Part shown: in pieces, positions 42,444-61,249 of the stretch | How the letters are laid out: the number at the start of each line of letters is the position of its first letter | How positions within the stretch are numbered: position 1 is the stretch's first letter | Assembly (NCBI GenBank): GCA_036826295.1 | Contig: DAISWO010000002.1 | Location: 77,963 to 141,962, forward strand | Direction of reading: 5' to 3' | Length of the DNA: 64,000 bases | Source: Candidatus Saccharimonadota bacterium | Lineage (GTDB): Bacteria; Patescibacteriota; Saccharimonadia; Saccharimonadales; JAGQNJ01 | Notes under the pieces: generated by a model | Seen by the model: the letters and a program-made list of their open reading frames with translations, nothing else | Databases searched by the model: none | What the model was told of the DNA's origin: nothing | Program-made: the position numbers and the translations under genes

Positions 42444-42445
42444 AA

Positions 42446-43576: not shown

Positions 43577-44715
43577 TAATTTCTCGTTTTCTCTATCTCA
43601 ATTGCTTCCTTATAAGTTGCTTCATATTGATCAGTTATTTTCTTGTAATCAAACTGCTTAATATAATCTTTAGCCCAATTCAACCACAGCTTCCGAAGTT
43701 CTTGATCTGATAGCATTAGCTCTAATTTTTTAGTAAATGACTCTGTATCTTTAGGGTTAATGATAGACAGGTTACCTTTGCCTTGCATAACAGCGCTGTA
43801 GCCTGGATTATTACCAGCGACCACAACCGCTCCAGCCGCCATAGCTTCTAATAGTACAATTCCAAAACTTTCTCCGAATATTGCCGGCGAGCAATAGATA
43901 TCACAACTACGAAGCAAATCAATTTTTTGTTGATCGCTTACGTAACCTAAAAACTCTACTCCGCTAATTTTCTTTTCGCGCACATATGTTTCTAGTTTTT
44001 TTCGCTCCGGACCATCGCCGGCAATTACTAAGCGGACTTTATCGCCGTTTTTAATCAACTGAGAAAATGCCATCAATAAATATTTAACGCCTTTACGTTT
44101 TTCTAAACGACCAACAAACAAAATAGTTTTGGTTTCTTCGTTAGATTTATCTGAGGCTCGAGTGTACTTATTGATATTAACGCCATTAGGGATAATCACC
44201 GGGTTATGTTTGCTAATTGCCGTGTAATACTCCGCGGCAGCGCTCGACACGGCTGTGCTAATATCTAACGACTTCAGTATGGATTTAGTGTATGGGGTAA
44301 TGACTTTTTCAACTGTTTTACTCAGCATCGTTTCGGGTAATTTGGCATGGAAGGTAGCGACGTTAGCACAACTAGATTTTGCCAAAATTTGCATAGACAA
44401 CATCGGTACCCACGGCTCGTGAAAGTGGATCACATCAAATTTGTGTGTAGCAAGCATCTCATCGATAGCCTTGAGATCCACCGAGGCTGAGACTTGGGCT
44501 GTCGTAGCCTGAAAAGGCGACTTGATATCAGCCGACGTGCCAATTAACACCATACCCTCGCTACTGCGGTTCAATTTGCTAAAGCCTCTGGGACGAGGTG
44601 TAATTATTAATACCTCATGGCCGCGATTAACTAGCTCCGTCTGAAGAGCCCGCACGCACTCTTGTACGCCACCACCTTTGAACATGTCATAAGGGCAAAC
44701 TAACCCAATCTTCAT
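43576..44715 (-). CDS. GT4-family glycosyltransferase
   Basis: FGESFGIVLLEAMAAGAVVVAG. Confidence 0.85.
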   Translation of the reverse strand: MKIGLVCPYDMFKGGGVQECVRALQTELVNRGHEVLIITPRPRGFSKLNRSSEGMVLIGTSADIKSPFQATTAQVSASVDLKAIDEMLATHKFDVIHFHEPWVPMLSMQILAKSSCANVATFHAKLPETMLSKTVEKVITPYTKSILKSLDISTAVSSAAAEYYTAISKHNPVIIPNGVNINKYTRASDKSNEETKTILFVGRLEKRKGVKYLLMAFSQLIKNGDKVRLVIAGDGPERKKLETYVREKKISGVEFLGYVSDQQKIDLLRSCDIYCSPAIFGESFGIVLLEAMAAGAVVVAGNNPGYSAVMQGKGNLSIINPKDTESFTKKLELMLSDQELRKLWLNWAKDYIKQFDYKKITDQYEATYKEAIEIEKTRN

Positions 44716-44732
44716 GAATTAATTATATCATT

Positions 44733-45650
44733 CTACTGTTTATTTAGCGCTTTTCTAATGCGTCCAGGGATAAATTCGATAGCCTCATCAGCTGACGCTA
44801 CTACAGTTGGGGCATGACGTTCTGATTTAATTACACTAGTATTAAAGTCGCTAAACACTATCTTATTGTGTTGCTGGACTATATGCCTATCCAGATATTG
44901 ATCGTTATCCACGGCAATACATTCTAGATGTGTCGACACGCTACTAGAGCAAATATCGATATTCAGGATTCTATTTAACGTGTAAAAGTGCGTCCGGATG
45001 TCATTTATGCGCCATAGATTAGTTTCAAAGTCGATTCGCAGTCGCTTCTGTTCTGGCGGTTCACTTTTATTATGTCTATCGGCAAACAGTAGGCTCCACC
45101 GCACTAGCGGTTTTATTTTTAGCCCAAGTCGCATTATGCCCGAAACGATCCTAGTTGACAGAATCTTCGTCAATGCCCGAAAAAGCTTCATTTTTCTAGG
45201 CGGATACTTTATGTCACTATGATGTAAAAATCCCACACCGCTAACCAGTAAATCCACTCTATCAGCAAGATCAGGGTATTTTTGCAGCATCCGTGTAGCA
45301 ATTCCAAAACCAAGCGAAACGCTCACGATCGTAATCCGGCGATTGCGGTAACGCAGTTTAATAAAGGCCGCTAAATAATCAGCCAGATTATCAATCGTCG
45401 GCGTTAATCCAATCTTAAAGTAGCTGTCCATCCCACCAAATCCCGGCAAATCCGGTATAGTAATGGCCCCGTAGCGATTGAGTGCTCTAGCGAACCCCTC
45501 CATGCGCTCTAGGCTGGCGTGATGACCATAGACTACTAGTATTTCTTTGGTTTTATTTTTCGGCGCTGGCATACGAAGCATTCGGCCATGCAAACCATTG
45601 ATAATAAATGGCTTAATATAGTGTTCTAAATCTTGATTATTCTTGGTCAT
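44733..45650 (-). CDS. alpha/beta-fold hydrolase-like protein
   Basis: ILVVYGHHASLERMEGF.., IVSVSLGFG nucleophile-elbow-like. Confidence 0.55.
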   Translation of the reverse strand: MTKNNQDLEHYIKPFIINGLHGRMLRMPAPKNKTKEILVVYGHHASLERMEGFARALNRYGAITIPDLPGFGGMDSYFKIGLTPTIDNLADYLAAFIKLRYRNRRITIVSVSLGFGIATRMLQKYPDLADRVDLLVSGVGFLHHSDIKYPPRKMKLFRALTKILSTRIVSGIMRLGLKIKPLVRWSLLFADRHNKSEPPEQKRLRIDFETNLWRINDIRTHFYTLNRILNIDICSSSVSTHLECIAVDNDQYLDRHIVQQHNKIVFSDFNTSVIKSERHAPTVVASADEAIEFIPGRIRKALNKQ

Positions 45651-45729
45651 ATACCTTCATAGCCTACTAAATTTATTTGGTTTAACACAATTAACTGGTG
45701 TAATTTGCTATAATTCTACTACTGATTTT

Positions 45730-46467
45730 ATGAAAAATGAAAAACTTCTGTACGCGGTCGCAATAACACTTCTAGCAATATTTGCTTTTGGCCAGCTAAA
45801 ATCACTGCTAACCCGCGAAGAACAGCGCGCTTATAAGAGTGGCGAGGTGGTGTCTAGTATTAATAAAACCAAATACTCTACATCAGAGCCCGCTAGCCTA
45901 TGGGTAATTGTTAACAAACAAAACCCCTTGCCAAAGACTTACTCACCAGCAAACTTATCCGAAGTTAAAGCGCTAACTGTCACTAATCCAGATGAATCCA
46001 AGCTTCGGGAGGATGCCAACAAGGCTCTAGCAGATCTGGTTAAATCAGCTGGCAAGGAAAAATTAAAATATCAGATGATTAGCGGTTATCGGTCTTATGA
46101 TCTACAAAATATCGTCTACGGCGGTAATGTCAGTAGTGATGGGCAAAAAAAGGCAGATGATACCAGTGCCCGACCAGGGCATAGCGAGCACCAGACTGGG
46201 CTAGCGGTTGATCTAGGTAGGACAGATGGTAAATGTCGGCTAGAGACGTGTTTTGGTGATACTCCGGAAGGCAAGTGGCTAGCTGATAATGCCTACAAAT
46301 TTGGTTTTATCGTGCGTTATCAGCAGGGAGAGCAAGGTATCGTTGGTTATAGTTACGAGCCTTGGCATCTGCGTTATGTCGGCAAGGAGCTAGCGGATGA
46401 ATTGTTTAAGAAGGATTTGACGATGGAAGAGTTTTTTGGGTATCCGGCGGCACCTGATTATAAATAA
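45730..46467 (+). CDS. VanY/M15B-family D-alanyl-D-alanine carboxypeptidase (start moved to ATG 45730)
   Basis: SGYRSYDLQ, HSEHQTGLAVDL, EPWHLRYVG; N-terminal TM anchor. Confidence 0.85.
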   Translation: MKNEKLLYAVAITLLAIFAFGQLKSLLTREEQRAYKSGEVVSSINKTKYSTSEPASLWVIVNKQNPLPKTYSPANLSEVKALTVTNPDESKLREDANKALADLVKSAGKEKLKYQMISGYRSYDLQNIVYGGNVSSDGQKKADDTSARPGHSEHQTGLAVDLGRTDGKCRLETCFGDTPEGKWLADNAYKFGFIVRYQQGEQGIVGYSYEPWHLRYVGKELADELFKKDLTMEEFFGYPAAPDYK

Positions 46468-46482
46468 TTCTCTAACTCAGTT

Positions 46483-46760
46483 TGCAAGCTAGAAGCTTGC
46501 GTAGAATCATACTTTTATCTCCAGCAATAAAAGTATGCAAAAGTGCCGCCCCGGCTCAAGCCACATGATGTAAATTGTTGTTTGTTTGCACCGTGCCTGC
46601 GGAACGCAAGCGATCTGATTCATTGATTTTGAAGTATGGAATCAGATTAGTCCTCGGCATTGATTCGGTACAAATCAAACAAAATTCGCTCAGTGTTTGA
46701 GAGGGGGTATAACAACAACTCAGGAAAAAGCCGATGCCCAGTTTAGACAGCTGGGTGCTG
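46483..46760 (+). repeat. structured repeat SR-A
   Basis: P1 hairpin CATACTTTTAT/ATAAAAGTATG 46508-46537. AAGTGCCGCCCCGGCTCAAGCCAC 46541-46564. Core CCTGCGGAACGCAAGCG 46596-46612. Hairpin ATCTGATTC/GAATCAGAT 46613-46647. TAGTCCTCGGC 46648-46658. Tail TCAGGAAAAAGCCGATGCCCA 46720-46740. Confidence 0.85.
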
Positions 46761-46789
46761 GTTTTAATAAGAAAAACGTTATGAACAAA

Positions 46790-46798
46790 TGATACAAT
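46790..46798 (+). promoter_or_regulatory. extended -10 (TGaTACAAT) 7 nt before ATG 46806
   Basis: read directly. Confidence 0.5.
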
Positions 46799-46805
46799 AT
46801 AGTTT

Positions 46806-47111
46806 ATGAGTGATAGTGCGACAAAAGCTGATTTTAAGCGAGTAGAAAAAAAGATTGACGGTGCTGTCGAGGATTTATCGCAAATTATTTCTGATTTTGC
46901 TAGTATTGTCGACAACCGTTTCAATAAAATTGAAGAGGATATTGCAGACTTGAAGCGTTCTCACGATAGGCTAGTTAACACCATAGATGGTTTTATTGGC
47001 AGAATAGACAAATACGAGACTGAACTTGCTGCGCGGGATCACAAAATTGACCGATTAGAGAAGTGGATAGAGCAGTTAGCTAAAAAAACAAACACAAAAC
47101 TGACAGTTTAA
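46806..47111 (+). CDS. coiled-coil hypothetical protein (101 aa)
   Basis: Heptad-rich sequence; cassette between SR-A and SR-C. Confidence 0.5.
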   Translation: MSDSATKADFKRVEKKIDGAVEDLSQIISDFASIVDNRFNKIEEDIADLKRSHDRLVNTIDGFIGRIDKYETELAARDHKIDRLEKWIEQLAKKTNTKLTV

Positions 47112-47177
47112 TTATCAATAGGTTTTTGAAAGCCTTTGCTTCACGCTTTTCCATAATTATGTGTCGACAAAATTGCG

Positions 47178-47216
47178 ATTACTTTTGGCAGGCAAAAGTA
47201 ATACAAAAGCTCGAGC
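47178..47216 (+). repeat. structured repeat SR-C (partial: P1 + P2 only)
   Basis: ATTACTTTTG-gcagg-CAAAAGTAAT then ACAAAAGCTCGAGC; parallels the SR-D 5' part. Confidence 0.65.
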
Positions 47217-47282
47217 TATCCGCTTTTATTGACATAACTAATACGGTATATATTGACTATAACGCAATAGTATTGTTAAAAT

Positions 47283-47918
47283 ATGATTATGACGGATATT
47301 GAGCGTGGCGAAGCTACGCCTCCACTTTTTGTAATGCGAACGGGGCTGATTTATTCATCACCTTTCGGCTTTTTTGATGATCTAGCTGATTGTCTTGATG
47401 CTCATGTGATTGTCCCGGACGACATCAGGCAAGACTTTATCGAAACACACGATGTTCCTGAGGGATTAGAAAGATCTGCTCCTGTCAGAGAGATGACACG
47501 GATTATTGCCGAGGACCAAGTTATTCGAGGTTTAGAACAGGGTGACAATGTAGTCTACGAGGGCCTTTTGAATCAAATTGAGCGTAGACAACAATTACGA
47601 GAAGTTGCAGAAAGTTGCGGTGCTTTAACGCTGTTAATTGCTACTAGATCATCTTTTGATGATATCTCAAAGAGGATACATCAACGCGCTAATGGCGAAA
47701 TTGATGGTATAGGCCCAGAAGATCAAGACTGGATAGATAGAAAATTATTTGCCTATCATAGCGTCAAGAAAAATATTGAATGGCCAGACGATGAACCGAA
47801 TTTAATATTGCGTTGCGATTTTGATAGAGATAACGAAGAGCTAATACAGATTGTCGAAAAACGTGTTGAGGTAATGTACTCCAAAGTAACCGAAAGTTGT
47901 AACATACTATTATCATGA
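47283..47918 (+). CDS. hypothetical protein (ATG 47289 possible leaderless start)
   Basis: ORF, visibly GC-richer; overlaps the next ORF by 4 nt. Confidence 0.55.
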   Translation: MIMTDIERGEATPPLFVMRTGLIYSSPFGFFDDLADCLDAHVIVPDDIRQDFIETHDVPEGLERSAPVREMTRIIAEDQVIRGLEQGDNVVYEGLLNQIERRQQLREVAESCGALTLLIATRSSFDDISKRIHQRANGEIDGIGPEDQDWIDRKLFAYHSVKKNIEWPDDEPNLILRCDFDRDNEELIQIVEKRVEVMYSKVTESCNILLS

Positions 47919-48541
47919 GGCTAAACGAAACAGCAACTGAATTACTGACTCCTCAATCTCAAGATCTTATTCGTAGGGAAGCGGATGATTTCGATAACCC
48001 TCGAGGTTATACATTTTCTTTAGCGGTAACAAATATCGGCAAACCATTAACAGTCAAACTAACTCAGGCATCAGAAATAATTGAACCTTATGATCCCGAT
48101 TTGGATGGTGTGATTGATAAAGACCCAGTCTATCGGGATGCATTTATCAGAGGCGGTTTATTAGCGGTCAGACTTTGTTACGAACATTTTGGGTCAAATT
48201 TTCGTGGTGAAATGAGAGATTTTGAACATGGACTAGAGCCTCTTCCCGATCCAAAGGATCCATTTTATCCAGAATCAAGAAAAGATAGAACCGAAGCTTT
48301 AAGGGAATTTTCAGAAGACGGTTGGAAAGTTGCGCAACCTACTTTCGGCGATTTATTTGAGCAATGGGAAGATATAGTTGTGCCTGATATATCAGCACAA
48401 TATTATTTGCGACCAGGTTTTGGTTATATTGTTCAGCTTGCATCAAAAGCTGAAGAGGTGATAGCTAGTAAACTAGAGGCTGTAGCCAGTGCGCCATCAG
48501 ATGCTTGGGATGATGCTATGACAAGAGAGTTGTCTCTTTAA
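47915..48541 (+). CDS. hypothetical protein (208 aa)
   Basis: ORF translationally coupled to 47283..47918. Confidence 0.55.
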   Translation: MRLNETATELLTPQSQDLIRREADDFDNPRGYTFSLAVTNIGKPLTVKLTQASEIIEPYDPDLDGVIDKDPVYRDAFIRGGLLAVRLCYEHFGSNFRGEMRDFEHGLEPLPDPKDPFYPESRKDRTEALREFSEDGWKVAQPTFGDLFEQWEDIVVPDISAQYYLRPGFGYIVQLASKAEEVIASKLEAVASAPSDAWDDAMTRELSL

Positions 48542-48587
48542 GCAAAATTCATATCTTTCTGGCGATCCTGTCAGCTCGTGTAGCTCT

Positions 48588-48766
48588 TATACTTTTGACC
48601 GCCAAAAGTATGGCAAAAGCTCGGGCTTAACGTTTTTTCTTGATTGACTCACTAGTCAAGACAAACAACAGGCTGTGGAACTCATCCATCAATAGATGGA
48701 CTCAAACAGTCCTCGCCTGATAGTTGTTTGTTTGACGTATAGTCATCAGGAAAAAGCCGATGCCCA
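48588..48766 (+). repeat. structured repeat SR-D
   Basis: P1 TATACTTTTG/CAAAAGTAT. Helix ACAAACAAC 48661-48669 / GTTGTTTGT 48723-48731. Core GGCTGTGGAAC. Hairpin TCCATC/GATGGA. GTCCTCGCC. Tail 48746-48766 identical to SR-A 46720-46740. Confidence 0.8.
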
Positions 48767-48853
48767 ACGAAAACTACAAAAGAACGCTCTAAATAGTAAA
48801 ATATGGGGGGGCATTATAATAATGCATATTAAGCTAAGGATAGATCAAACATC

Positions 48854-49252
48854 ATGAACAAGACTTACAATTGGTATCAGACACTGCAAAAGCCGTCATG
48901 GTCACCACCAGAATCGCTGTTTGGCCAAGTCTGGTCGGTTTTGTATCTCATTATTTTTTTCAGTTTTGGCATGGTGTTTTACAAGACAGCCTCCAAAGAT
49001 CTACCTTGGCTGGTAGCCTTGCCGTTTGGCCTCAATCTGCTGTTTAACTTTGCATTCACACCTTTACAATTTGGCCTCAAGAACAACCTACTAGCATCAA
49101 TCGATATTCTATTAGTGGTCGTCACGCTAATCTGGGCATTGATAGCAATTTGGCCACACATGCGCTGGGTAGCCCTAGTAAATGTTCCATATCTTCTCTG
49201 GGGCCTCTTCGCCACCGCCCTCCAACTATCCATTACTTATCTAAACAGATAA
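48854..49252 (+). CDS. tspO: TspO/MBR-family tryptophan-rich membrane protein
   Basis: WYQTLQKPSWSPPESLFGQVWSVLYLIIFFSFG and 4-5 TM helices. Confidence 0.8.
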   Translation: MNKTYNWYQTLQKPSWSPPESLFGQVWSVLYLIIFFSFGMVFYKTASKDLPWLVALPFGLNLLFNFAFTPLQFGLKNNLLASIDILLVVVTLIWALIAIWPHMRWVALVNVPYLLWGLFATALQLSITYLNR

Positions 49253-49290
49253 CAAAATTGTTTTTTGCGAGTAAGAACTCGCTTATCTTC

Positions 49291-49480
49291 CATACTTTTC
49301 TCAGTAGCAAGAAAAGTATGCAAAAGTGCCATGCCGACTGTTTGTTCTTGATATAACTTCTAGTCAATGCCTACAACAGCCTGTGGAACGACAAGCGCCC
49401 CGAATTATTGTTTTTGAGTATGAATTCGGGGATGTCCTCGGCTAACTAGTTGTAGGATTGACGGTGTTATTCAGGGACAA
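49291..49480 (+). repeat. structured repeat SR-E
   Basis: P1 CATACTTTTCT/AGAAAAGTATG 49291-49320. Helix CCTACAAC 49370-49377 / GTTGTAGG 49449-49456. Core CCTGTGGAACGACAAGCG. Hairpin CCCCGAATT 49398-49406 / AATTCGGGG 49423-49431. ATGTCCTCGGC. Confidence 0.85.
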
Positions 49481-49546
49481 CAGAGGCAACCAGAATGCAA
49501 TTGGGTTAAAAAAAACACCGCCCTAGAACTTCTATCACATTTAGCC

Positions 49547-49552
49547 TAAAAT
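49547..49552 (+). promoter_or_regulatory. -10 box TAAAAT 7 nt before ATG 49560 (leaderless R-M operon mRNA)
   Basis: read directly. Confidence 0.4.
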
Positions 49553-49559
49553 AGGGGTA

Positions 49560-50423
49560 ATGGGGCAGAAAATTCTTGAAGGTATTATAAAAAAAGCATA
49601 TTTTTCGGATAAGGGTTTTGTGCTTTTTAAAGATAATTCTATTGAATTACTCCAGAAAATCCCTGAAAACAGTATTGATATGATTTTTGCGGATCCTCCA
49701 TATAATCTATCAAATGGTGGTTTTACTGTACACGCCGGCAAAATGGTAAGTGTGAATAAAGGCGAATGGGATAAGAGTAAGGGGCTAAAAGCAGATTTTG
49801 ATTTTCATATACGATGGCTCGAGGAATGCTATAGGGTTCTAAAGCCAAATGGCACTATTTGGGTTAGCGGTACGTACCATTCTATATATCAGTGTGGATA
49901 CGCACTACAACTGCTTGGTTATAAAATTTTGAATGACATCGCATGGTTTAAACCAAATGCGTCCCCAAACCTAAGCTGTAGATATTTTACTGCCAGCCAC
50001 GAGACTTTACTGTGGGCAAGAAAAGACCCGAAGGGAAAGCATACTTTCAATTACGAAGTGATGAAAGGCTGGACAGATAACTACAAAAAACCGTTCAAAT
50101 CACCTACAACTGGCAAACAAGAATATATTGAGATTATGCATGAAGCAGGGAAGCAGATGCGCTCCGTGTGGGCCATAGGTACACCAAAACGAGAAGAAAA
50201 GACATTCGGTAAACATCCAACCCAGAAACCCGTAGCACTACTAGAGCGGGTCGTACTCTCTTCTACTAACAAAGGCGACGTAATCTTGGACCCCTTTACT
50301 GGCAGTTCTACAACAGGGATAGTAGCAGCAAAAAACAACAGGAAATTTATTGGAATAGATCTAGACAAAGAATACCTAGAAGTTTCAATAAAGAGATATA
50401 ATCTACTGAAAGCCGTGAAATGA
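49560..50423 (+). CDS. beta-class N6-adenine DNA methyltransferase, DpnA (M2.DpnII)-like, probable GATC specificity
   Basis: DMIFADPPYNLSNGG (motif IV) precedes ILDPFTGSSTTG (motif I). Long collinear similarity to my recollection of DpnA (SPNLSCRYFT, GKHPTQKP). Confidence 0.88.
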   Translation: MGQKILEGIIKKAYFSDKGFVLFKDNSIELLQKIPENSIDMIFADPPYNLSNGGFTVHAGKMVSVNKGEWDKSKGLKADFDFHIRWLEECYRVLKPNGTIWVSGTYHSIYQCGYALQLLGYKILNDIAWFKPNASPNLSCRYFTASHETLLWARKDPKGKHTFNYEVMKGWTDNYKKPFKSPTTGKQEYIEIMHEAGKQMRSVWAIGTPKREEKTFGKHPTQKPVALLERVVLSSTNKGDVILDPFTGSSTTGIVAAKNNRKFIGIDLDKEYLEVSIKRYNLLKAVK

Positions 50424-51280
50424 TTGATAAAGATTTTGATAAACTGGTTTCAACTTTCAAGAGTTCAATTAAAACCTGGGACTATTTTGTAAATTGGGAC
50501 AAAGTTTATTTAAATTCATCGGAACTTGAAATCGCCCTAAACAAGCTAAATTATTTACTCGGCAAGGAAAAGCTCGAAGAAGAGTTTATAAAATTATATG
50601 CTGATAACTCAGATATAGTTAAAGCACTGCCAGCACTATTGGCAATTAGAGAAAAGAAAATTGAGATTTTTGACAAAGCAACTAAAGATTCAGAATTTTT
50701 TAATTTCAATGATCAATCCGCTGGCGCAAAAAAATATTTCGAATTTATTGAGAAATCTGGACTTGCCAAACTTTTTAAAGAAGATGGGGTCAAGAATCTT
50801 GTCGACTATGTATTAGGGGTTGAGGTAGGGCTTGATAGCAATGGCAGAAAAAATAGAGGCGGTACGTTAATGGAAGACATTGTCGGCACTCTCTTAGCGG
50901 ATTTTTGCAAAGATAATGACTTACAACTAATGTCGCAAGCTACTGCAAAGAAAGTTAAAAATATTTGGGATATTAATATAAAAGTTGATAAATCTGCGCG
51001 AAGTTTCGATTTTGCAGTTTATAACCCCAGAAGTAATAATATAAAGTTATTTGAAGTAAATTTCTATAATGGGGGAGGCTCTAAGCTCAAAGCCGTTTGC
51101 GGTGAGTTTCGTAGTTTGTACGATGAGTTAAAGTCTCAAAGCATTGATTTTGTTTGGATTACAGACGGTTTGGGGTGGCATACTACTAAAAAACCACTTG
51201 AAGAAACTTATAATCATAACGAATTTGTCTTTAACCTTACCATGATCGAAAACAATATATTACAGCGTATGGAGTGGTAG
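50420..51280 (+). CDS. type II restriction endonuclease, DpnII/MboI family (GATC)
   Basis: LVDYVLGVEVGLDSNGRKNRGG, EVNFYNGGGSKL, WITDGLGW match remembered R.DpnII blocks; ATGA overlap with the methylase gene. Confidence 0.85.
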   Translation: MIDKDFDKLVSTFKSSIKTWDYFVNWDKVYLNSSELEIALNKLNYLLGKEKLEEEFIKLYADNSDIVKALPALLAIREKKIEIFDKATKDSEFFNFNDQSAGAKKYFEFIEKSGLAKLFKEDGVKNLVDYVLGVEVGLDSNGRKNRGGTLMEDIVGTLLADFCKDNDLQLMSQATAKKVKNIWDINIKVDKSARSFDFAVYNPRSNNIKLFEVNFYNGGGSKLKAVCGEFRSLYDELKSQSIDFVWITDGLGWHTTKKPLEETYNHNEFVFNLTMIENNILQRMEW

Positions 51281-51506
51281 GGGACGGATACTATAAATTA
51301 ACAATACAATTGCCCTTGTATTCTATAAGTTAGTATATTTATCGTTATTCAGAACACATTAGAATGTATATGGAAATGAGAGCGTGGCTATCCACACATA
51401 AAACTGGGACAGTCTATTCAAAACTTCCTATTCATGAATATTGCACATATGAGTCGTTCGTTTGCAACTGGTCATTTTTATGTTCATGTAATACAATTAG
51501 AAAGAT

Positions 51507-53507
51507 ATGTTGTCAGATCTAGACATCAAGCTAACCTATAGCTCTGCATATGATGACATTGTTAACGATTTTTTTATTCCAACTTTAAAACAATCGATTT
51601 CATATGATAGAGTCGCAGGGTATTTTTCTCCGTCAGTGTTAGCACTCGCTTCGGTTGGCATTGCTAGTTTCGTAAAAGAGAAAAAAGGAAAAATTAGAAT
51701 TATATGCAGTGTGAATATTAGCTCTAAGCTTTGCGATGCGATAATGGAAGACGACGGCTCGAAAATATCATTAGACGAAATGTCGGTAACAGAGCTAACT
51801 TCTGAACTCGAGAAAGACTATTATAGACTGTTTGTAAAAATGTTAAATGCAGGAATTATAGAATTAAAGATTGTTGCTATGGATAATGCGTTTAATATTT
51901 TTCATTCAAAAATTGGCATATTAAAAGATTCAGCTGGAAATGCCGTTTCTTTTGTCGGTTCGGTTAATGAAACATCAAACGCGTGGCAAGGAAATATAGA
52001 GGATTATCCAACTTTTACATCCTGGCGTCCTGGCGGGCAAGAATATATAGATAAATATATGTCAATATTTGAAGCATACTGGAATGGGGACATACCTAGA
52101 TCTACCACATTCAGCCTCAGTAAATCAGTGATTAACCGCATCCAAGAAATTTCAGGTGCTAACCAATTTGAGACCACTGAATTAGTTAAAAAAATCGAGA
52201 GCAAGTTGGTTGAAGAGAAAAAGAAACCCTATAAATATCAATTGAAAGCAATCGAGAACTGGAAAAATGCAAATTATAACGGGATATTTGCAATGGCAAC
52301 AGGGACCGGAAAAACATTTACGGCACTATGCGGATTAAAAGATTATTTCTTATCATCCGACGTCAATGTTGCTATCGTTGTCGTGCCACTAGCGCAACTA
52401 GTGTATCAATGGGTGGAGGAGATTAAAGACCATGAATTTTTCGCTAAAGCAAATATAATTATGGCACCATACGCTAGAGACTGGAAAAAAACAATAAAAG
52501 ATGAGCTATTCTACAATAGCGGGGGCAATAATTTAATCGTGGTCACTACTTATTCAACGTTTTTCACGGAAGATTTCATAAAAATCTTTAAGAGCTACGG
52601 TAAGACAACAATGCTGATAGCTGATGAGGTACACAACGTTGCTGGTGGCGCTAGACTTGAACATTCTGACTTTATATCAGAATTTCATTCAAAGTTGGGG
52701 TTAAGTGCGACACCGTTAAGCATTTGGTCAGAAGATAATTCTAATCAAATGATTGATTTGTTTGGGGGTGTGGTATATGAATACAGCTTAGAAAAGGCAT
52801 TGAAAAAGAATGATCTTACAAATTTTGATTATGAATACTTTGAAGTTCCACTGACTCAGCAGGAGTTTGAAGAGTATGTAGACCTATCGAAAAAAATATA
52901 TCCAAAAACAAACGAAGACAAAAAATTATCTGGAACAAGTGCAGAAATAAAAAGAGCAAACATAAAGAAGAATGCAGAGCAAAAAGTTTTAATGCTCGAA
53001 AAAAAACTTGCAACGCATAGTTTTGACATTAAAAAAACTTTGATTTACGCAAACGATCAAATTCAATTAGATAAAATACAAAAAATGATGGATGTCCATG
53101 GTCTAAAAACAAGTAGATTTACCGGTGAAGAGAAAAACCCAGTATTAAGAAAAAGCATTATCGAAAACCTCGAAGATGAGATATATGATGCAGTAGTTGC
53201 AATCAAATGTCTAGATGAAGGAGTAGATATTCGTTCAGCCCAAACCGCCTACTTAATTTCGAATAATACGGAGCCAAGGGAGTACACTCAACGATTAGGG
53301 AGAGTACTTAGGAAGTGTGAAGGTAAGAAGCTATCTTATGTAGTGGATTTTGTTGTTGTGCCCCCCGAGTCGTTTCGAGACAATAAATACGGAAAGCAAT
53401 TAGTTAAAAATGAACTAAAAAGAGTCGGTTTCTTCTCTGATCTTGCATCGAATAGTTCGGATGTTGCGGGTCATTTAATTGATACTAAACTAAAATACGG
53501 TATATAA
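51507..53507 (+). CDS. HKD(PLD)-family nuclease fused to SF2 (ResIII/DEAH-type) helicase
   Basis: FHSKIGILKD..GSVNETSNAW; helicase motifs AMATGTGKT, IADEVHN, SATP, QRLGRVLR. Confidence 0.85.
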   Translation: MLSDLDIKLTYSSAYDDIVNDFFIPTLKQSISYDRVAGYFSPSVLALASVGIASFVKEKKGKIRIICSVNISSKLCDAIMEDDGSKISLDEMSVTELTSELEKDYYRLFVKMLNAGIIELKIVAMDNAFNIFHSKIGILKDSAGNAVSFVGSVNETSNAWQGNIEDYPTFTSWRPGGQEYIDKYMSIFEAYWNGDIPRSTTFSLSKSVINRIQEISGANQFETTELVKKIESKLVEEKKKPYKYQLKAIENWKNANYNGIFAMATGTGKTFTALCGLKDYFLSSDVNVAIVVVPLAQLVYQWVEEIKDHEFFAKANIIMAPYARDWKKTIKDELFYNSGGNNLIVVTTYSTFFTEDFIKIFKSYGKTTMLIADEVHNVAGGARLEHSDFISEFHSKLGLSATPLSIWSEDNSNQMIDLFGGVVYEYSLEKALKKNDLTNFDYEYFEVPLTQQEFEEYVDLSKKIYPKTNEDKKLSGTSAEIKRANIKKNAEQKVLMLEKKLATHSFDIKKTLIYANDQIQLDKIQKMMDVHGLKTSRFTGEEKNPVLRKSIIENLEDEIYDAVVAIKCLDEGVDIRSAQTAYLISNNTEPREYTQRLGRVLRKCEGKKLSYVVDFVVVPPESFRDNKYGKQLVKNELKRVGFFSDLASNSSDVAGHLIDTKLKYGI

Positions 53508-53529
53508 TGCAAGATATTAAGGTTAGGAT

Positions 53530-53712
53530 ATGAGCACAACGATCAATAAGACAATACTTGCACAGATTGACTCCTCTAATTATTCGGACGAGGTAAAGTA
53601 CCTTGTTACTCAATTTATCCAGAAGGAAAAAGAACATTTTGAATCTCATCTAGATTTTGCAAAAGAACTTGATAAATTAATTAAAGTTGTCACAGATGAA
53701 AAGTTTAAATAG
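53530..53712 (+). CDS. small hypothetical protein (60 aa) of the defence operon
   Basis: ORF with AGGTTAGGA SD-like sequence; 3' end overlaps the ATPase start. Confidence 0.45.
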   Translation: MSTTINKTILAQIDSSNYSDEVKYLVTQFIQKEKEHFESHLDFAKELDKLIKVVTDEKFK

Positions 53713-55597
53713 CATACGAATAAAAAACTTTATGTGTTACGAAGATCAAACTATTGATTTTGAAAAAGATATTGGTCTATATTTGATTACTGGCGATAAC
53801 AACGCTGGTAAATCAACGATTTTTAACGCCATTAGCTGGTGCTTTTTCGAGAAAACTCCCTTCAGAAAACCAGGAGACGATATAGATATTGAGTTCTCGG
53901 GTAAATTAAAAGGTGCACCTACAGAAATCGAAGTACGCTTCACGCTGGACAACAATAAATTTTCAATATTTAGAAAGCTCGGCGGGTTGAATGGTTCGAA
54001 GCAAGTAGTGTCAAGTGTTAGTAAGAGCGGCGGTCTACAACCCATTTATTTTCATGCCGACGATTTAATATCGAAATTTTTACCAGAAAATATTAAGCAT
54101 TTATTTATGTTTGATGGTGAGATGATTAAGAATTTGTTTGACGATGATACAAGAGAAGGATTAAAAAACAGCATAAAATACATTAGCGACATAAACGTGC
54201 TAGAGCGTGCGAACCGTCATATAAGTAGTGAAGCTACCAAACTTTTAAAAAAAACCACCACAGATCGGAAGCAGTCTGAGCAGATCGATCAATTAGAGTC
54301 GACAATAGATAACAACAACACAAGAATTGAAGATTTTAAGAAAAAAGTCTCAGAGAAAAATAAAAGGATAAATGAGAATAAACAACGCTTGGATGATTTG
54401 GACGAACGGATAGAGAAAAACAAAGGTTATGAAGATCTATTGGCTATAAAAAATCGGAGCAACAACGAACGCAAAAAATCCGAAGAGTTAATAGAACTTG
54501 AAGAAAAAGATATGTTCAAGATGCTGACAGAGATTACACCCTTCATAATGGTTTACGACAAAATGTCTAAATTAGTAGGCACAATTGACGAAGAGATTGA
54601 CTTACACAATCTCCCAGCACCTATCGAACCATCTGAGCTCAAAAAGTTTGTTAAAGATGGGAAATGTGTTTGTGGGACGAAGGTAGACGAAAAGATAGAA
54701 AAACATTTTTTGAAACTGATCGACGAGTATTCGAAAGTTAATGAGAAGCAATATATTGTAGACATCTCAAAAGACTTCTGGTCTATTACGAATTCCATAA
54801 AGGATCTTACGAGTAAAATTGAGGACTCTCGCTCTAGGATAGCGAAAAATCGGCAATATAAAAACGAGCAAAATCTAGAGTTTGATATGGCGGTAGAAAA
54901 GCTAGATAAAATCCAAAGCATAGATCCCGAAGCTGACAAAGCATCCAGGAGAGATTTAATCGACTTGAATAATAAGTTAACTGAAGAAGTTACTGATTTG
55001 AAAAGAGATATTGTGCAGCTCGAAGCCGATGTGAGAAATGACACTATTACGAGAGATAACATACGACGAGATTTAGCGAAAGCCGAAGGAAAGAATTCTA
55101 AAATTAACCTACTACAAGAAGCAATGCAACTTATTGAGGAAACCATCAAAAAGACAACTCATGACACTAAGAATTTAATCGAAAGAAAGTTTAATGACAC
55201 ATTTTTAGAGCTGTCCGGAACAACAAATTTCACCGGGATAAAAATGGAGGACGACTATTCAATAATGCTAAAAACGGCTGATGGTTCGTACAGGGGGCCA
55301 TCTGGATTTGGGACTGGTTATCATAAAATGCTAGGCCTTTCTATTGTCTTTGCCTTGAGCGAACACCTAGATAATTCAGATTTTCCAATAATGGTTGACA
55401 ACCCTTATGATTCAATCGCTCCAGAGCATAAGCCGACGATTAATAGTTACCTAAAAAAACTCTCGAAAAAGAAACAGGTAGTAGTGACTGCCCTTGATGA
55501 AGAAGAGATGCTTGAAGGATTTAGCAAGGATGATGTAATGCGTCATTTTTTTATATCTCAGAAAAATAATGTTTCTAGTGTGGAGATAAAAAAATGA
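53696..55597 (+). CDS. SMC/Rad50/DndD-like ABC ATPase with long coiled coil (ATG 53696; TTG 53687 alternative)
   Basis: IRIKNFMCYEDQTIDF..ITGDNNAGKST Walker A. About 300 aa K/E/L-rich. CVCG in the middle. C-terminal GFGTGYHKMLGLSIVFAL..FPIMVDNPYDSI (signature/Walker B-like). Confidence 0.8.
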   Translation: MKSLNSIRIKNFMCYEDQTIDFEKDIGLYLITGDNNAGKSTIFNAISWCFFEKTPFRKPGDDIDIEFSGKLKGAPTEIEVRFTLDNNKFSIFRKLGGLNGSKQVVSSVSKSGGLQPIYFHADDLISKFLPENIKHLFMFDGEMIKNLFDDDTREGLKNSIKYISDINVLERANRHISSEATKLLKKTTTDRKQSEQIDQLESTIDNNNTRIEDFKKKVSEKNKRINENKQRLDDLDERIEKNKGYEDLLAIKNRSNNERKKSEELIELEEKDMFKMLTEITPFIMVYDKMSKLVGTIDEEIDLHNLPAPIEPSELKKFVKDGKCVCGTKVDEKIEKHFLKLIDEYSKVNEKQYIVDISKDFWSITNSIKDLTSKIEDSRSRIAKNRQYKNEQNLEFDMAVEKLDKIQSIDPEADKASRRDLIDLNNKLTEEVTDLKRDIVQLEADVRNDTITRDNIRRDLAKAEGKNSKINLLQEAMQLIEETIKKTTHDTKNLIERKFNDTFLELSGTTNFTGIKMEDDYSIMLKTADGSYRGPSGFGTGYHKMLGLSIVFALSEHLDNSDFPIMVDNPYDSIAPEHKPTINSYLKKLSKKKQVVVTALDEEEMLEGFSKDDVMRHFFISQKNNVSSVEIKK

Positions 55598-56058
55598 TAG
55601 ATTCTGAAAATTGGCCAGCAGTAAAAACATCGAAAGAAGTTCACGCGCAAATCGAAGATCTTCAAAATTCCGAAGGGTTTTTCCGAGGGATGAACCAGAT
55701 AGAGATTATGAAACTTGGAGCAGCTCATACTATTAAGAATGGACTGTCGGCTCCAGCAGAACATAAGAGAGAAACCGATATATCAGCACCTAAATATGTA
55801 GCGAGCAAAGAAACTATGTATGTAAACCTACGTATGCTTATGCTGTTATGTTACTCTACCGATTCTGGTATCAAAATTAGCGATGATTTTGAAAGAATTG
55901 ATATTGTTAAAACTTTTGAAAGATTTGCCGAAGCAGGTATTAGGGACCTGCATGATAAATACATAATTGGGAGCGATACACCCGAAGACTTTCTCAGACT
56001 TGCTTTTGAAGATGCACAATCGGTGAAACCAGCAATAGAAGAAAAGTTATCGAATTAG
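55594..56058 (+). CDS. small protein, tentatively DndE-like (DUF1832-type) DNA-binding protein
   Basis: VKTSKEVHAQIEDLQNSEGFF..IMKLGAAHTI resembles the DndE N-terminal pattern as I remember it; ATGA-coupled to the ATPase. Confidence 0.4.
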   Translation: MIDSENWPAVKTSKEVHAQIEDLQNSEGFFRGMNQIEIMKLGAAHTIKNGLSAPAEHKRETDISAPKYVASKETMYVNLRMLMLLCYSTDSGIKISDDFERIDIVKTFERFAEAGIRDLHDKYIIGSDTPEDFLRLAFEDAQSVKPAIEEKLSN

Positions 56059-56115
56059 GTTAGGAGGTCAGGGGGGGTTTGAGGGGCGTCCTCTAACGGA
56101 TAGGGAGAATTTGAA

Positions 56116-56427
56116 ATGTATGAGAATTTGAAGGATAGACTAAAAAAAGATTTTGATGTTGATCTGGACATATCAGGCGGTAATGGTAAAAGCTTAGCTG
56201 ATCCAATCGTAATCAACCAAAGTATTAGAGACTGTGTTGGTACAGAATATTATATTGTTAAGTTAATTTTTCAAGCAATGGGCAAAGAGTGGAAAACCGT
56301 AAAACAAACTATAGTTACTGCAGCTGACAAGAAAATTGATCAACTTACCATTGAAGTAACTGATGTTGACGGGGCTAAACACGAAACAGATTTTTATTTC
56401 GACATAACCAAGCATATTAAAAATTAA
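56116..56427 (+). CDS. hypothetical protein (103 aa), last gene of the defence cassette
   Basis: ORF with GGGAGA SD; no motif. Confidence 0.45.
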   Translation: MYENLKDRLKKDFDVDLDISGGNGKSLADPIVINQSIRDCVGTEYYIVKLIFQAMGKEWKTVKQTIVTAADKKIDQLTIEVTDVDGAKHETDFYFDITKHIKN

Positions 56428-56539
56428 TGGGGTTTGAAATACTTTTTGGTTGTATTGATGCTGATAAAAAATCAATACTACCCTGGGGTTTGAAATACTT
56501 TTTGGTTGTATTGATGCTGATAAAAAATCAATACTACCC
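56428..56539 (+). repeat. perfect tandem duplication of a 56-nt unit, followed by a diverged partial third unit starting at 56540
   Basis: TGGGGTTTGAAATACTTTTTGGTTGTATTGATGCTGATAAAAAATCAATACTACCC x2; each unit contains hairpin GTATTGAT/ATCAATAC. Confidence 0.92.
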
Positions 56540-56836
56540 TGGGATTTGAAAGGTGTCTCTGAATTTTCCTGAGCAGAGGTTGTGCCTGTTTGAGTTATTT
56601 TCCCCTCTCAAACACTGACGTAGCGAATTTGTTTTTGGTTGAATCATTTTCGAGGACCACTCCCGAACCATACAATAGAATAATGTTCGGGAGCGCTTTG
56701 CGTTCCGCAGAAACGATCAAAAACTAATTTGTGACCATCACGTGGCTTGAGCCGGGGCGGCACTTTGCCATACTTTCTTGCTGACTGAGAAAGTATGAAA
56801 AATCCGCAAACCGTAGGATCGTAAGAAAAGTATTTT
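56540..56836 (-). repeat. structured repeat SR-B (inverted relative to SR-A, C, D, E)
   Basis: Reverse complement carries P1 CATACTTTCT/AGAAAGTATG (56769-56797). The 24-nt block at 56742-56765 is identical to SR-A. CTGCGGAACGCAAAGCG (56694-56710). Hairpin CTCCCGAAC/GTTCGGGAG. GTCCTCG. Confidence 0.88.
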
Positions 56837-56867
56837 GATATAGCGGAGTTCAGACCTCTAAATAAGT

Positions 56868-56873
56868 TATACT
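56868..56873 (+). promoter_or_regulatory. -10 box TATACT 6 nt before ATG 56880
   Basis: read directly. Confidence 0.4.
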
Positions 56874-56879
56874 TGCACT

Positions 56880-57572
56880 ATGGATAACAATATTCGTCTT
56901 AAAGAATTGAAAGAGTTATCATCAATCGAAATACCGGCTGGCACTAATAGACTTCAAACCGCTCTTTTAATTGCTGATTTTGCCCATAGTGCTTTTTCGC
57001 ACAACGGCGACAGCAAACCCAGCTCATCTGACCCTGTGACTATACTGACAGAAGCACAGGCAGGTTCAAGCTTCAGATGCGTAGAATACAGTCACCTAGC
57101 CGCATGGCTTATGGTCGCCCACGGGATTGATGTCCGGACGTTGAACATTATGAACAAAGACGTCGAAACAATGGAATATGGCGCCGGTCATGTCGTTGTT
57201 GAATTTTATGAAGGCAAACAACACGGTTGGGTCATGGCGGATATCCAGGCGGGTGTTGTCGCCAGACAAGGAGGCGTGTTGCAATCAGCTTTTGAGCTAA
57301 GAGATTCTTTAGATGAAGCAAGCATAGAAGATTTTAGAGGGAATAAATTCGTCGCAGCGAAAGGGATGTTTGGCGGCAATTACAAAGAATGGCTCCGACC
57401 GTACCTATATTTTATAGACAGGTCAAAAAAACTTAATTACGAATACTCTGACGACTCAGAGCCGCATTTAATACTGGTGCCTGACGGCGGTAAGCCACCC
57501 AAGTTTTTTCAGCGGAATCATAAGCTCAATCTTATTGTTACGTCGCCTGATGTTTTTTATAAAGTAAAATAA
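56880..57572 (+). CDS. transglutaminase-like (Cys-His-Asp) domain protein
   Basis: SFRCVEYSHLAAWLMVAHGIDVR .. GAGHVVVEFY .. GWVMADIQ spacing typical of the TGase core. Confidence 0.55.
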   Translation: MDNNIRLKELKELSSIEIPAGTNRLQTALLIADFAHSAFSHNGDSKPSSSDPVTILTEAQAGSSFRCVEYSHLAAWLMVAHGIDVRTLNIMNKDVETMEYGAGHVVVEFYEGKQHGWVMADIQAGVVARQGGVLQSAFELRDSLDEASIEDFRGNKFVAAKGMFGGNYKEWLRPYLYFIDRSKKLNYEYSDDSEPHLILVPDGGKPPKFFQRNHKLNLIVTSPDVFYKVK

Positions 57573-57595
57573 ATATAGTATGGAGCGGAAGGTCT

Positions 57596-58096
57596 TTGGT
57601 CATAGTTTGCAGTTTTCCTGTGCATCTGGTTTTCCTAAGCAGATGTTCTATTTGTATTTACTACCACAATCCTACTGCCAGTGAACTGGCAATCGGTTGT
57701 CGCCACGCCTCGACTCGGGCAATAATTTGCGCCGGGCTTCCGGCCTTGCAAACTGCCACAGGCAGTTCTCACCTTATCAAAAAACAGAGGGAATGGGAGG
57801 TTTATTGTCCGAATGAATGCTGAGGACTAATCCGATTCCATACAATGGAATAATGAATCGGATCGCTTGCGTTCCACAAGCACGGACTAGAAACATCCCA
57901 AGACCATCTATCTTTTTGATAGGGCGGCTTTTTTGCATACTTTGGTAGCTGCAGACAAAAGTATGAAAATATATTTCAAAGCTTTGTTTTTTGTTTCGCA
58001 GGGCACCTTTGCCATTCCGCTAGACAGCAGATTCTTACTGACTGAGAAAGTATGTGAAATTCGCGAACCGTAGGATCACAAGAAAAATGTTTTGTA
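57596..58096 (-). repeat. structured repeat SR-F (composite: full core plus a second partial copy of the P1-side end)
   Basis: Reverse complement has CTTGTGGAACGCAAGCG + ATCCGATTC/GAATCGGAT + TAGTCCTCAGC (57819-57880). P1 at 57946-57975. 58040-58096 repeats SR-B 56780-56836. Confidence 0.8.
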
Positions 58097-58219
58097 GTTT
58101 TGGGCTGGTGTAAGAGTTCTGTGCTCTAGACGTTTGTCTGTACCTGTTCTATGGCACTATCGTCTTTGATATCAGTACGCATAATTGTTGGTAAGACCGA
58201 AACAGGCTAGAATTAAGCC

Positions 58220-58510
58220 ATGAAGAAACTCGTAATTATATCGTTTATAGTAGCGGCGATAATCTTCTTGTTACTACCATCACGCAGCGAAGAACTTTAC
58301 AGATGCCCCGACGGGTCTACTGTTTGTCCAGCCTTATACTCGTCTGAGACTAAACAATTCACCGGTATGACTCTTTACGGATTATTGACACCAGATAATG
58401 AAGCCGACGACCAAACCTACAGCGATTTAGCTAGAAATTCACTGATCTTTATTCCACCTTTTATTCTTCTAAGTGTTTATCTATACAACAAAAGAAAAAC
58501 CCACAAATAA
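58220..58510 (+). CDS. small membrane protein (96 aa)
   Basis: N- and C-terminal TM helices. Confidence 0.45.
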   Translation: MKKLVIISFIVAAIIFLLLPSRSEELYRCPDGSTVCPALYSSETKQFTGMTLYGLLTPDNEADDQTYSDLARNSLIFIPPFILLSVYLYNKRKTHK

Positions 58511-58531
58511 CCAAAATTTGTTGATATTTGT

Positions 58532-59221
58532 TTAGGCTACTTTTTGGTCTTGAATATATTCGGGGCCTAAATTGATGTCCGTAACGTTTGGCGACCTGCG
58601 CAGAGCAAGCACTGGATGCCCGGTGACTAGTTCTCCGATCAAAAAGGGGCGATTATCTGATGGAGGATTGCCCATGAAGTCGGGATTAAAATCCTGATCG
58701 GATAGTGTCGCCTGAAGCGCCCCCAGTACCATCATTGTGTCCTCATTCCTCTCCATAGAGAGTTCTTTGAATACTTCTTCAATTTGCTTGGTTGTGTGGT
58801 ATCCACCAATTCCGATACCTGTCTCGGCAACTGACTCAATAACGTTCGACTTGCCAGCACCGGGATACGATAGGAAACGTTCGCCATCAAATGTCCCAGC
58901 AACAACATACTCAATGATTATTCGTGTAGTCTTATATACTGCCTCTGGATCGTTATATTTTTCGCGTGCGATTGCTCCGAGCATGGTTGAAGCAAACAAG
59001 TCTAATCCATTAGCAATTTCCTCCGGTTGTTCAGCTATTTTCTCTAAATACTGTCCAGATTCACGCTGTAATAAATGACCGAGCTCAGCCTCGGCCCACT
59101 GGCAAGCTGTCTCGTAATTGTTTGAATCTGATTCAAAATTCGTTGACATTTTTACTCCATTTATTATTGATGAGCAACGTATTATTATAATGCATTTAAG
59201 ATATGTTTGCAATATGTCCAC
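58532..59221 (-). CDS. hypothetical protein (229 aa or shorter)
   Basis: ORF only. Confidence 0.5.
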   Translation of the reverse strand: MDILQTYLKCIIIIRCSSIINGVKMSTNFESDSNNYETACQWAEAELGHLLQRESGQYLEKIAEQPEEIANGLDLFASTMLGAIAREKYNDPEAVYKTTRIIIEYVVAGTFDGERFLSYPGAGKSNVIESVAETGIGIGGYHTTKQIEEVFKELSMERNEDTMMVLGALQATLSDQDFNPDFMGNPPSDNRPFLIGELVTGHPVLALRRSPNVTDINLGPEYIQDQKVA

Positions 59222-59253
59222 GATTAAGTTCTTGGCCCATGATGTTAAAAATT

Positions 59254-59455: not shown

Positions 59456-59512
59456 ACAGAATACTGCAGAACATGATTGCATTTGCTAATATTATGTGTT
59501 ATAGTTATATAT

Positions 59513-61241: not shown

Positions 61242-61249
61242 CGTTATAT

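Follow-up and report, generated by a model that had tools for sequence, protein, structure and literature searches.

In a 64-kb stretch (the window) of a 372-kb contig from a Candidatus Saccharimonadota bacterium (DAISWO010000002.1), a family of structured repeats (SRs) stands between the genes of an island that carries restriction-modification (R-M) and other defence genes. Judging from sequence comparison, we hold with a probability of roughly 0.55 that the SRs are structured intergenic repeats forming the joints between modules of a hypervariable island, that these modules are shuffled by recombination, and that the inverted copies SR-A and SR-B delimit neither a composite transposon nor an invertible switch. 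A sequence-only reading of the window had proposed such a composite or invertible unit, with SR-A and SR-B as its ends. Its intuition of a mobile unit is right in another form, namely the presence or absence of the whole island and the reshuffling of modules with pieces of SR at their joints. The proposed mechanism can be broken down as follows: (i) the SRs would be transcribed mostly as hairpins in 3' untranslated regions (3' UTRs) or between cistrons, punctuating the modules; (ii) the conserved boxes at the SR ends would serve as portable patches of homology for the exchange or reorientation of gene modules by recombination; (iii) the block of DpnII-type R-M genes and PbeA/PbeC between SR-E and SR-B would be one module exchanged in this manner; and (iv) exchange of the island as a whole would proceed through homology in the flanking genes.

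The limits of the variable unit are given by a metagenomic contig (L010; L-numbers designate the comparison loci or contigs, 8 to 20 kb each) whose VanY is 78% identical in amino acid (aa) sequence to that of the left flank. It aligns to positions 40304 to 46470 of the window and then jumps to 60117 to 61204; its two convergent VanY-family genes overlap by 4 nucleotides (nt), and no SR was found in it. Because this contig joins 46470 to 60117, the block from 46471 to 60116 is recognized as an island that, on this alignment, is present or absent as a whole between relatives. An empty site, for which the sequence-only reading had suggested looking, thus exists, but its limits are those of the island and not the 46508 to 56836 of the supposed unit. 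Orthologues of the left VanY in L009, L010 and L011 are 78 to 82% identical (aa). An inverted duplication of the flanks as the origin of the two VanY-family genes was rejected, the two being only 29% identical (BLASTP).

Sequence identities point to exchange of the island between lineages. The 154 nt that follow the VanY stop codon in L011, SR-A among them, are 92.9% identical to the window, with 78.9% for VanY and 70% for the next gene (a hydrolase), and along VanY the nucleotide identity to L011 climbs in the direction of the island, from some 72% to some 93%. The island modules of L058 are 89 to 92% identical, as opposed to 76.7% for the 7-kb flank. By these alignments, modules that are about 90% identical lie in genomes whose flanks are about 76% identical, and the island content is therefore exchanged between lineages, probably via homology in the flanking genes.

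On L058 and L059 the flank is kept and the modules of the island follow in another order. VanY of L058 is followed by a new 108-aa gene, an SR-D-like copy, and an SR-A tail with a homologue of the 101-aa gene that succeeds SR-A in the window; then come a decayed SR-A copy, interrupted between CTG and CGGAACG by an insertion of 61 nt, and a zeta-toxin/AAA_33 gene, and the series ends with a stray SR-A tail, a 112-aa gene, TspO (95% aa identity) and a type IIG R-M gene. Directly from the TspO stop codon onward, this contig carries other cargo and SR-E is absent: at the site held in the window by the DpnII and Pbe genes, positions 10510 to 16863 of L058 encode a 1316-aa ResIII+Eco57I (type IIG) enzyme, two unknown open reading frames (ORFs) and an NYN-domain protein, and one site therefore bears two different defence loads. 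In L009, the site between the orthologous VanY and 101-aa genes is occupied by a different, chimeric SR between flanks that are 95 to 100% identical. As aligned, homology between relatives switches on and off at SR bodies and tails, and the break points at which module order differs fall at the same elements.

All of the approximately seven SR copies in the window lie within the island, in the orientations + + + - - - +, and a search of all 64 kb with a covariance model (CM) of the SR, run with filters off, gave significant copies only between 46.5 and 59.5 kb. Alignment and folding yield one layout, about 200 nt long (range, 178 to 206 nt), which consists of a 5' hairpin (P1, CATACTTT...AAAGTATG), a single-stranded linker GCAAA(A)G and a rod of about 170 nt with a three-way junction, where the conserved strands CUGYGGAACGCAAGCG and UAGUCCUCGG surround a strongly covarying hairpin. 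A tail box (CAGGAAAA) stands 3' of every full copy, on the same strand. In an unbiased alignment of seven copies, 96.3% of the cells are paired and 23 of the 44 pairs contain double changes, compared with 36 to 53% paired in slid controls, and none of 500 shuffles reached the observed values; P1 shows compensatory changes in L009 and L011, and SR-A has a minimum free energy of -65.8 kcal/mol (z = -4.4). These data indicate that the fold is under selection. A pattern of the core shared exactly by the four full copies of the window (A, E, B and C) does not occur in shuffled sequence and has three matches in genomes, all from "uncultured Candidatus Saccharibacteria"; in metagenomes there was a single match, inside an ORF and by chance, and a first scan of viral sequences gave none. 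Rfam 15 returned no match at gathering score in the window, none at E <= 5 between 46000 and 58500 and no relevant one on the phage loci considered below; the SR is a structured repeat family absent from Rfam. A literature search on Saccharibacteria non-coding RNA, Saccharibacteria islands and the P1 sequence found nothing relevant.

It is against this family that the similarity of SR-A and SR-B has to be judged. The 24-nt block from which the earlier proposal started (AAGTGCCGCCCCGGCTCAAGCCAC, 46541 to 46564) is indeed the exact reverse complement of 56742 to 56765; it is embedded in a 41-nt arm that is 93% complementary, and the estimated chance expectation of an exact inverted match of 24 nt in 64 kb is about 1e-5. 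In the folds and the consensus structure, the block forms the 5' side of the basal helix in type-I SRs, and its partner strand CAGTGTTTGAGAGGGG, at 46691 to 46706, is the other block that had been noticed as common to the two copies. Since both blocks also occur in other genomes (L004, 2691 to 2894, and L005, 3291 to 3495), the match between SR-A and SR-B is explained by conservation of a helix within a subtype, which our comparison extends across genomes, and not by local duplication. The two copies are also less alike than had been described: over their full length they are just 72.7% identical (global pairwise alignment, as for all SR identities), far from near-identical, and as the supposedly most similar pair they are tied with A and C (72.2%). 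SR-A matches SR-C better in the core (arms of 35 and 34 nt, 91%) and SR-B better only in the two basal-helix strands, and it is nearer to copies of other genomes (79.9% to that of L005, 76.3% to that of L004) than to SR-B. Likewise, SR-E is 83.3% identical to L003 4851-5055 and only 59.5% to SR-B. The sequence-only reading had named as a refutation that other SR pairs prove equally similar regardless of position, and A and C are such a pair.

From the SR family and the island evidence together, it is therefore highly improbable that a 10-kb composite transposon, or a phase-variable invertible segment, has SR-A and SR-B as its inverted termini. Such a unit would be in keeping with the long inverted match and with the occurrence of SR copies in both orientations within the island. 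On the other hand, SR-A resembles SR-C as much as SR-B, the shared blocks are helix strands of a subtype found elsewhere, SR-D and SR-E lie inside the supposed unit, and the ends of that unit differ from those of the segment that is actually present or absent. No 6-mer or longer is shared outside SR-A and SR-B as a target-site duplication, and the 7-mer found for E and B, as well as the 6-mers found for A and C and for the island ends, are within chance. Pfam and PADLOC scans of the island ORFs (ORFs at 44 to 64 kb) brought up no recombinase, transposase or invertase domain, whether of a serine invertase, a tyrosine recombinase or a transposase, and the SRs themselves have no conserved ORF. 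Contigs assembled from the short reads of two samples (SRR2107210 and SRR2107211) have the window orientation only, at both the VanY/SR-A and the SR-B/transglutaminase junctions, minor variants being hidden by assembly. Composite transposons, the Hin/Gin systems and shufflons resemble the A-B arrangement in that a gene block is flanked by inverted repeats, but the SRs are non-coding, their identity is 73%, there is neither a target-site duplication nor an adjacent recombinase, and the limits of the variable unit are different.

The narrower bracket formed by SR-E and SR-B fared better. The R-M and defence genes that had been placed between them are confirmed by annotation of the cargo (49560 to 56427), in which an adjacent methyltransferase and DpnII-family endonuclease constitute a DpnII-type type II R-M system, and the P1 hairpins of the two SRs are nearly the same, as had been stated (CATACTTTTCTCAGTAGCAAGAAAAGTATG versus CATACTTTCTCAGTCAGCAAGAAAGTATG). 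The cargo from 49493 to 56597 has a guanine-plus-cytosine (GC) content of 35.9%, the minimum for any window of the same size in 46 kb of core sequence being 38.4%, and this low-GC segment fits exactly between SR-E and SR-B. The E-B bracket may be one swapped module. A stronger version would make it a discrete mobile cassette with inverted SR termini, the P1 hairpins lying on the outside and the tail boxes on the inside, which an enzyme encoded elsewhere would move in trans. That the cargo lies precisely between two tail boxes, that the P1 hairpins agree, that SR-E travels with the cargo (since it is missing from L058, where TspO is followed by other genes) and that convergent SR pairs recur in L003, at a distance of 78 nt, and in L004, with two intervening genes, would all accord with this version. 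We nevertheless regard it as unlikely, if the least unlikely of the alternatives, for several reasons: (i) the identity of SR-E and SR-B is low and, as in the L003 and L004 pairs, the two copies are of different subtypes; (ii) there is no target-site duplication; (iii) the cargo has no close relative elsewhere, the next PbeA being only 42% identical, so it is not traceable as a mobile unit; (iv) the right junction of the alternative allele lies beyond the end of the L058 contig; and (v) in L003 both SRs simply follow convergent genes.

Two features of this cargo deserve mention in their own right. A Pbe module comprises PbeA, PbeB, PbeC and PbeD together with dnd modification genes. Here PbeA and PbeC stand beside the DpnII pair with no detectable match to the PbeB or PbeD models, the two small ORFs after PbeC match no PADLOC model, and no dnd phosphorothioation genes were found in the island; the Pbe system may have been reduced or re-paired here. 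Immediately behind the final ORF of the cargo, the tandem 56-nt repeats (56428 to 56539) each contain an internal hairpin, and a partial third unit runs into the tail box of SR-B.

Joints of modules exchanged by recombination remain the preferred interpretation of the SRs, and their positions relative to genes suggest where they are expressed. In 7 of 10 SRs the element starts 5 to 98 nt after the stop codon of a co-oriented gene. SR-A is followed by its tail box (CTCAGGAAAAAGCCGATGCCCAG, from 46719), by a terminator-like hairpin (46735 to 46757) and by a conserved extended -10 box (TGATACAAT, 46790 to 46798) just before the 101-aa gene; because the hairpin and the -10 box lie between SR-A and that gene, SR-A is better described as a 3'-UTR element than as a leader of the gene. 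SR-D ends, at 48745, with the same tail box as SR-A, and SR-B is divergent from a transglutaminase-like gene (56880 to 57572; Pfam Transglut_core). The SRs are thus probably transcribed within 3' UTRs or between cistrons. Hairpins cleaved by RNase III in phage T7 lie between the cistrons of polycistronic transcripts, where they set the 3' ends and the stability of the upstream messages; they resemble the SRs as long, irregular intercistronic hairpins whose structure is conserved above sequence, and differ from them in that the SRs have strongly conserved sequence blocks (P1, GCAAAG and CUGYGGAAC/GUCCUCGG). As a separate observation, the extended -10 box is 8 nt before the ATG of the 101-aa gene, which encodes a coiled-coil protein, and is identical in L009 and L058, suggesting a leaderless or near-leaderless transcript. 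The sense and antisense strands of the SR fold about equally well, and the folded form may be RNA or single-stranded DNA; a G-U pair conserved in six of seven copies slightly favours the sense strand.

Several other functions for the SR were considered and rejected. A leader peptide starting from the AUG in P1 is not conserved: the reading frame is shifted in L005, and the AUG is missing from type II copies; the short ORF in question (46534 to 46572, starting in the 3' arm of P1) reads MQKCRPGSSHMM in SR-A and MQ(K/R).. in most copies and phage forms. A DNA uptake sequence was dismissed, since AAAGTATG is enriched solely through the SRs, with six sites outside them. A MOBQ/MOBV oriT-like nick site next to P1, suggested by a resemblance to AAGTGCGCCCT, was dropped because the linker positions are not conserved across copies, and a sigma-54 promoter on the reverse strand has the wrong spacing (by eye). 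A CRISPR-repeat mimic is alike in shape, but the stem is far longer than in known repeats and the same sequence occurs across unrelated hosts.

A selected fold combined with fast-changing sequence also raises the question of whether the SRs are the folded substrates or guides of a dedicated site-specific system that would assemble defence and accessory cassettes, either attC-like or as stand-alone guides similar to IS110 bridge RNAs. Their position right behind stop codons at cassette borders, their clustering without a nearby recombinase (as in integrase-less attC clusters), the sharing of subtypes by genomes at non-orthologous sites and the existence of chimeric and decayed copies would be compatible with such a system. 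Integron attC sites are 57 to 141 nt long, have R''/R' boxes (RYYYAAC ... GTTRRRY) and form co-oriented arrays beside intI and attI. The SRs share with them a conserved shape, variable sequence, a place behind ORFs and clustering in an accessory and defence array; in contrast, they are about twice as long (some 200 nt), occur in mixed orientations, delimit multi-gene blocks instead of single-gene cassettes and lack the R/L box consensus, the best candidates found by eye, GTTTGAG in type I and GTTATTC in the E type, not fitting GTTRRRY. Among the ORFs scanned there was no integron integrase or IS110-type gene, and the break points between genomes fall at no single fixed position, as a fixed crossover would require. 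We consider a site-specific system improbable. The pdif modules of Acinetobacter plasmids offer a further comparison: gene modules flanked by inverted 28-bp XerC/D sites are swapped between replicons. They are similar to the arrangement described here in that accessory modules bracketed by an inverted short element are swapped without a recombinase of their own; however, pdif sites are short protein-binding sites, whereas the SRs are 200-nt folded elements in which no dif-like core was identified.

The SRs might instead be selfish non-autonomous mobile DNA, comparable to miniature inverted-repeat transposable elements or REPINs, that has settled in tolerant intergenic sites, their position at joints being incidental. 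The imperfectly palindromic rod folds on both strands; some SRs are truncated, interrupted or chimeric; two 198-nt copies occupy different intergenic sites of phage contig L046; and P1-type elements occur on phage contigs of widely differing GC content. We judge this rather unlikely. The arms of the rod are imperfect inverted repeats, but no target-site duplication is seen, and the only clean case of presence versus absence concerns the whole island; copy number is low, and 50 kb of core sequence are free of copies; the 64-kb window and the 8- to 20-kb loci revealed no cognate transposase; and covariation around a core that is asymmetric and conserved speaks for a role that goes further than being bound by a transposase. 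ERIC/IRU, REP/BIME/REPIN, the Correia elements of Neisseria and the bcr elements of Bacillus cereus are imperfect palindromes, known or proposed to form RNA hairpins and recombination hot spots, of which decayed copies are common. Like these, the SRs are imperfect palindromes in intergenic regions, often just behind stop codons, in both orientations and with decayed copies; unlike these, they are of low copy number, confined to one island, free of target-site duplications, equipped with an asymmetric conserved core and a separate 5' hairpin, and have no known RAYT or transposase partner.

The 5' module of the SR has relatives in phages. A scan of viral contigs for P1 plus the linker found several unrelated phage contigs of 41 to 65% GC, on which the motif is followed by G-N(1-3)-CGCC as it is in SRs; a follow-up scan for the linker and CGCC, with the 5' arm of P1 not required, recovered four of these and six contigs that lack the 5' arm, which we ascribe to chance. 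On the IMG/VR contigs, the elements occupy intergenic sites in clusters of structural genes (Table 1); the copy behind the portal gene of L046 is followed by a terminator, and the mini version on L049 is reminiscent of the SR core in its GUAUG loop and a GGACUCUCC strand. Homology between SRs and the phage elements beyond the 5' module is probable on these resemblances, and annotated GenBank phages gave no useful BLAST match. That the P1 module is found on phage contigs whose base composition varies so widely is a hint of a larger family associated with mobile DNA. A more far-reaching proposal is that SRs and the phage P1-GCAAAG elements together are undescribed folded junction elements, serving as substrates or guides of the cassette exchange by which defence and accessory modules would be built in Saccharibacteria islands and phages, with a function like that of attC or bridge RNAs, a different architecture and the enzyme elsewhere; this is speculative, and we think it quite unlikely. 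A close known parallel is the PeSL of T4-type phages, promoter-early stem-loops described as "mobile regulatory cassettes", which flank variable ORFs in hyperplastic regions and whose recombination is thought to shuffle modules. The SRs are likewise short repeated stem-loop modules at the borders of variable gene blocks, with relatives of their 5' module in phage clusters, and both border position and mosaic joints are supported in the island; on the other hand, they are about 200 nt long, their rod is extended and covarying and their junction core conserved, they stand on a bacterial chromosome, and no sigma-70-like promoter was detected inside them.

A number of points weigh against module shuffling at SRs as we have described it. 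The sample is small, about 15 copies from about 7 genomes, and recombination at SRs is deduced from three mosaics. Three of the ten SRs (B, C and L004a) are not behind a co-oriented gene, and we infer transcription and a function at the RNA level from sequence features; the about equal folding of both strands would be compatible with a DNA-level role, as single-stranded or cruciform DNA. Sequence conservation in P1, linker and junction core is so strong as to imply a specific binding partner, and a dedicated recombinase or transposase could sit in the contig beyond the window.

The genomes of Saccharibacteria are tiny, and little is understood of how these bacteria obtain and exchange their defence genes. 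In the case described, close relatives either lack the 13.6-kb island or carry it, in some of them with its modules rearranged, and two different restriction systems are found at one position. If the SRs act as crossover points, or as substrates for a dedicated system, this would account for the shuffling of defence modules in this phylum. For the observation from which the analysis set out, the practical upshot is negative, in that the A/B pair appears to be neither a transposon nor a switch.

Table 1. Coordinates of the SR copies, island genes and phage elements (positions refer to the window unless a locus is named)
Feature	Position	Strand	Remarks
Variable island, 13.6 kb	46471-60116		Between two convergent VanY-family genes; from L010 alignment
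Left flank VanY (M15 D-Ala-D-Ala carboxypeptidase)	45730-46467	+	Core gene; Pfam VanY 1.4e-41
Right flank VanY-family gene	60102-60995	-	Pfam VanY 8e-21
SR-A, type I	46505-46710	+	CM 208 bits; starts 38 nt after VanY stop
SR-D, type II-like, divergent	48585-48762	+	CM 41 bits, E = 4e-9; 44 nt after stop of 208-aa gene
SR-E	49288-49492	+	CM 183 bits; 36 nt after TspO stop; left border of low-GC cargo
SR-B, type I, inverted relative to A and E	56598-56800	-	CM 186 bits; tail box 56564-56573 (-)
SR-C	57768-57968	-	CM 171 bits; tail boxes 57639 and 57622
Truncated B-like SR (upstream 40 nt, broken P1 and linker only)	58020-58094	-	63 nt, 86% to 56775-56837
Partial SR (core only, no P1, no basal helix)	59314-59439	+	CM 33 bits, model positions 62-188
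N6/N4 methyltransferase, DpnII-type R-M	49560-50423	+	Pfam N6_N4_Mtase 3.5e-63
DpnII endonuclease	50420-51280	+	Pfam DpnII 2.6e-90
PbeA (PLD + helicase)	51507-53507	+	PADLOC PbeA 1e-180
PbeC (DndD/SMC-like ATPase)	53687-55597	+	PADLOC PbeC 8e-47
Two small unknown ORFs	55594-56058, 56116-56427	+	
Two exact 56-nt tandem repeats	56428-56539		Between cargo and SR-B tail; repeat search
L046 elements, two copies of 198 nt	L046 7216-7413 and 9814-10011		94% identical; one after portal gene, one further downstream in same gene cluster
L032 element	L032 3443-3300	-	After major capsid gene
L036 element	L036 4735-4990		After terminase region
L031 element	L031 4525-4660		
L049 mini version	L049 3940-4010		

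A second structured repeat, which we call the X element, was noticed in the window at 15634 to 15710 (+) and 57790 to 57640 (-), with a partial copy at 19759 to 19788. It consists of a GAGAACTGNC..GCAGTT hairpin, a CCGGRAGCCCGG hairpin and then GCCCGAG..GAGGC, shows compensatory changes between copies and has no Rfam match. The copy on the minus strand at about 57790 to 57640 follows SR-C and stands between the body of that SR and its tail boxes. An X-element hairpin also adjoins a tRNA-like sequence: at 19844 to 19790 (-), the 5' two-thirds of a tRNA-Trp-like sequence, with the anticodon loop CGCUAGA (CUA), run into this hairpin and not into a T arm; the intact tRNA-Trp(CCA) (19582 to 19658) lies about 110 nt downstream; ARAGORN did not call it.

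Other tRNA genes of the window show additions at their 3' ends. In the region 15389 to 15556, 23 nt from the 3' end of tRNA-Tyr occur a second time at 15534 to 15556, the duplication enclosing an insert of about 145 nt, and a hairpin module TCCTTCGTC...GAAGGA lies directly behind three ends in ..CCA, those of tRNA-Tyr, tRNA-Gln and a tRNA-Gln-like 3' fragment (61345 to 61372). These modules (window 15389 to 15556 and 61197 to 61445) are also found by the corresponding region of L010 (7248 to 7472) and look like remnants of tRNA-targeted integration.

Further repeats and gene arrangements were seen elsewhere. The last 54 nt of rplL (L7/L12; 32280 to 32333) are repeated exactly at 32914 to 32967, 634 nt downstream, and the two repeats bracket a 162-aa ORF (32357 to 32845) that has no Pfam match; the rplL-rpoB spacer looks like the site of an insertion with a long direct repeat. 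In L005, positions 4858 to 7998 (-) encode a UvrD/PcrA helicase with an inserted intein splicing domain. Finally, the window holds two adjacent paralogous GT4 glycosyltransferase genes at 42446 to 44715, which share stretches of 45 to 57 nt at 79 to 87% identity (repeat families D7 and D10).

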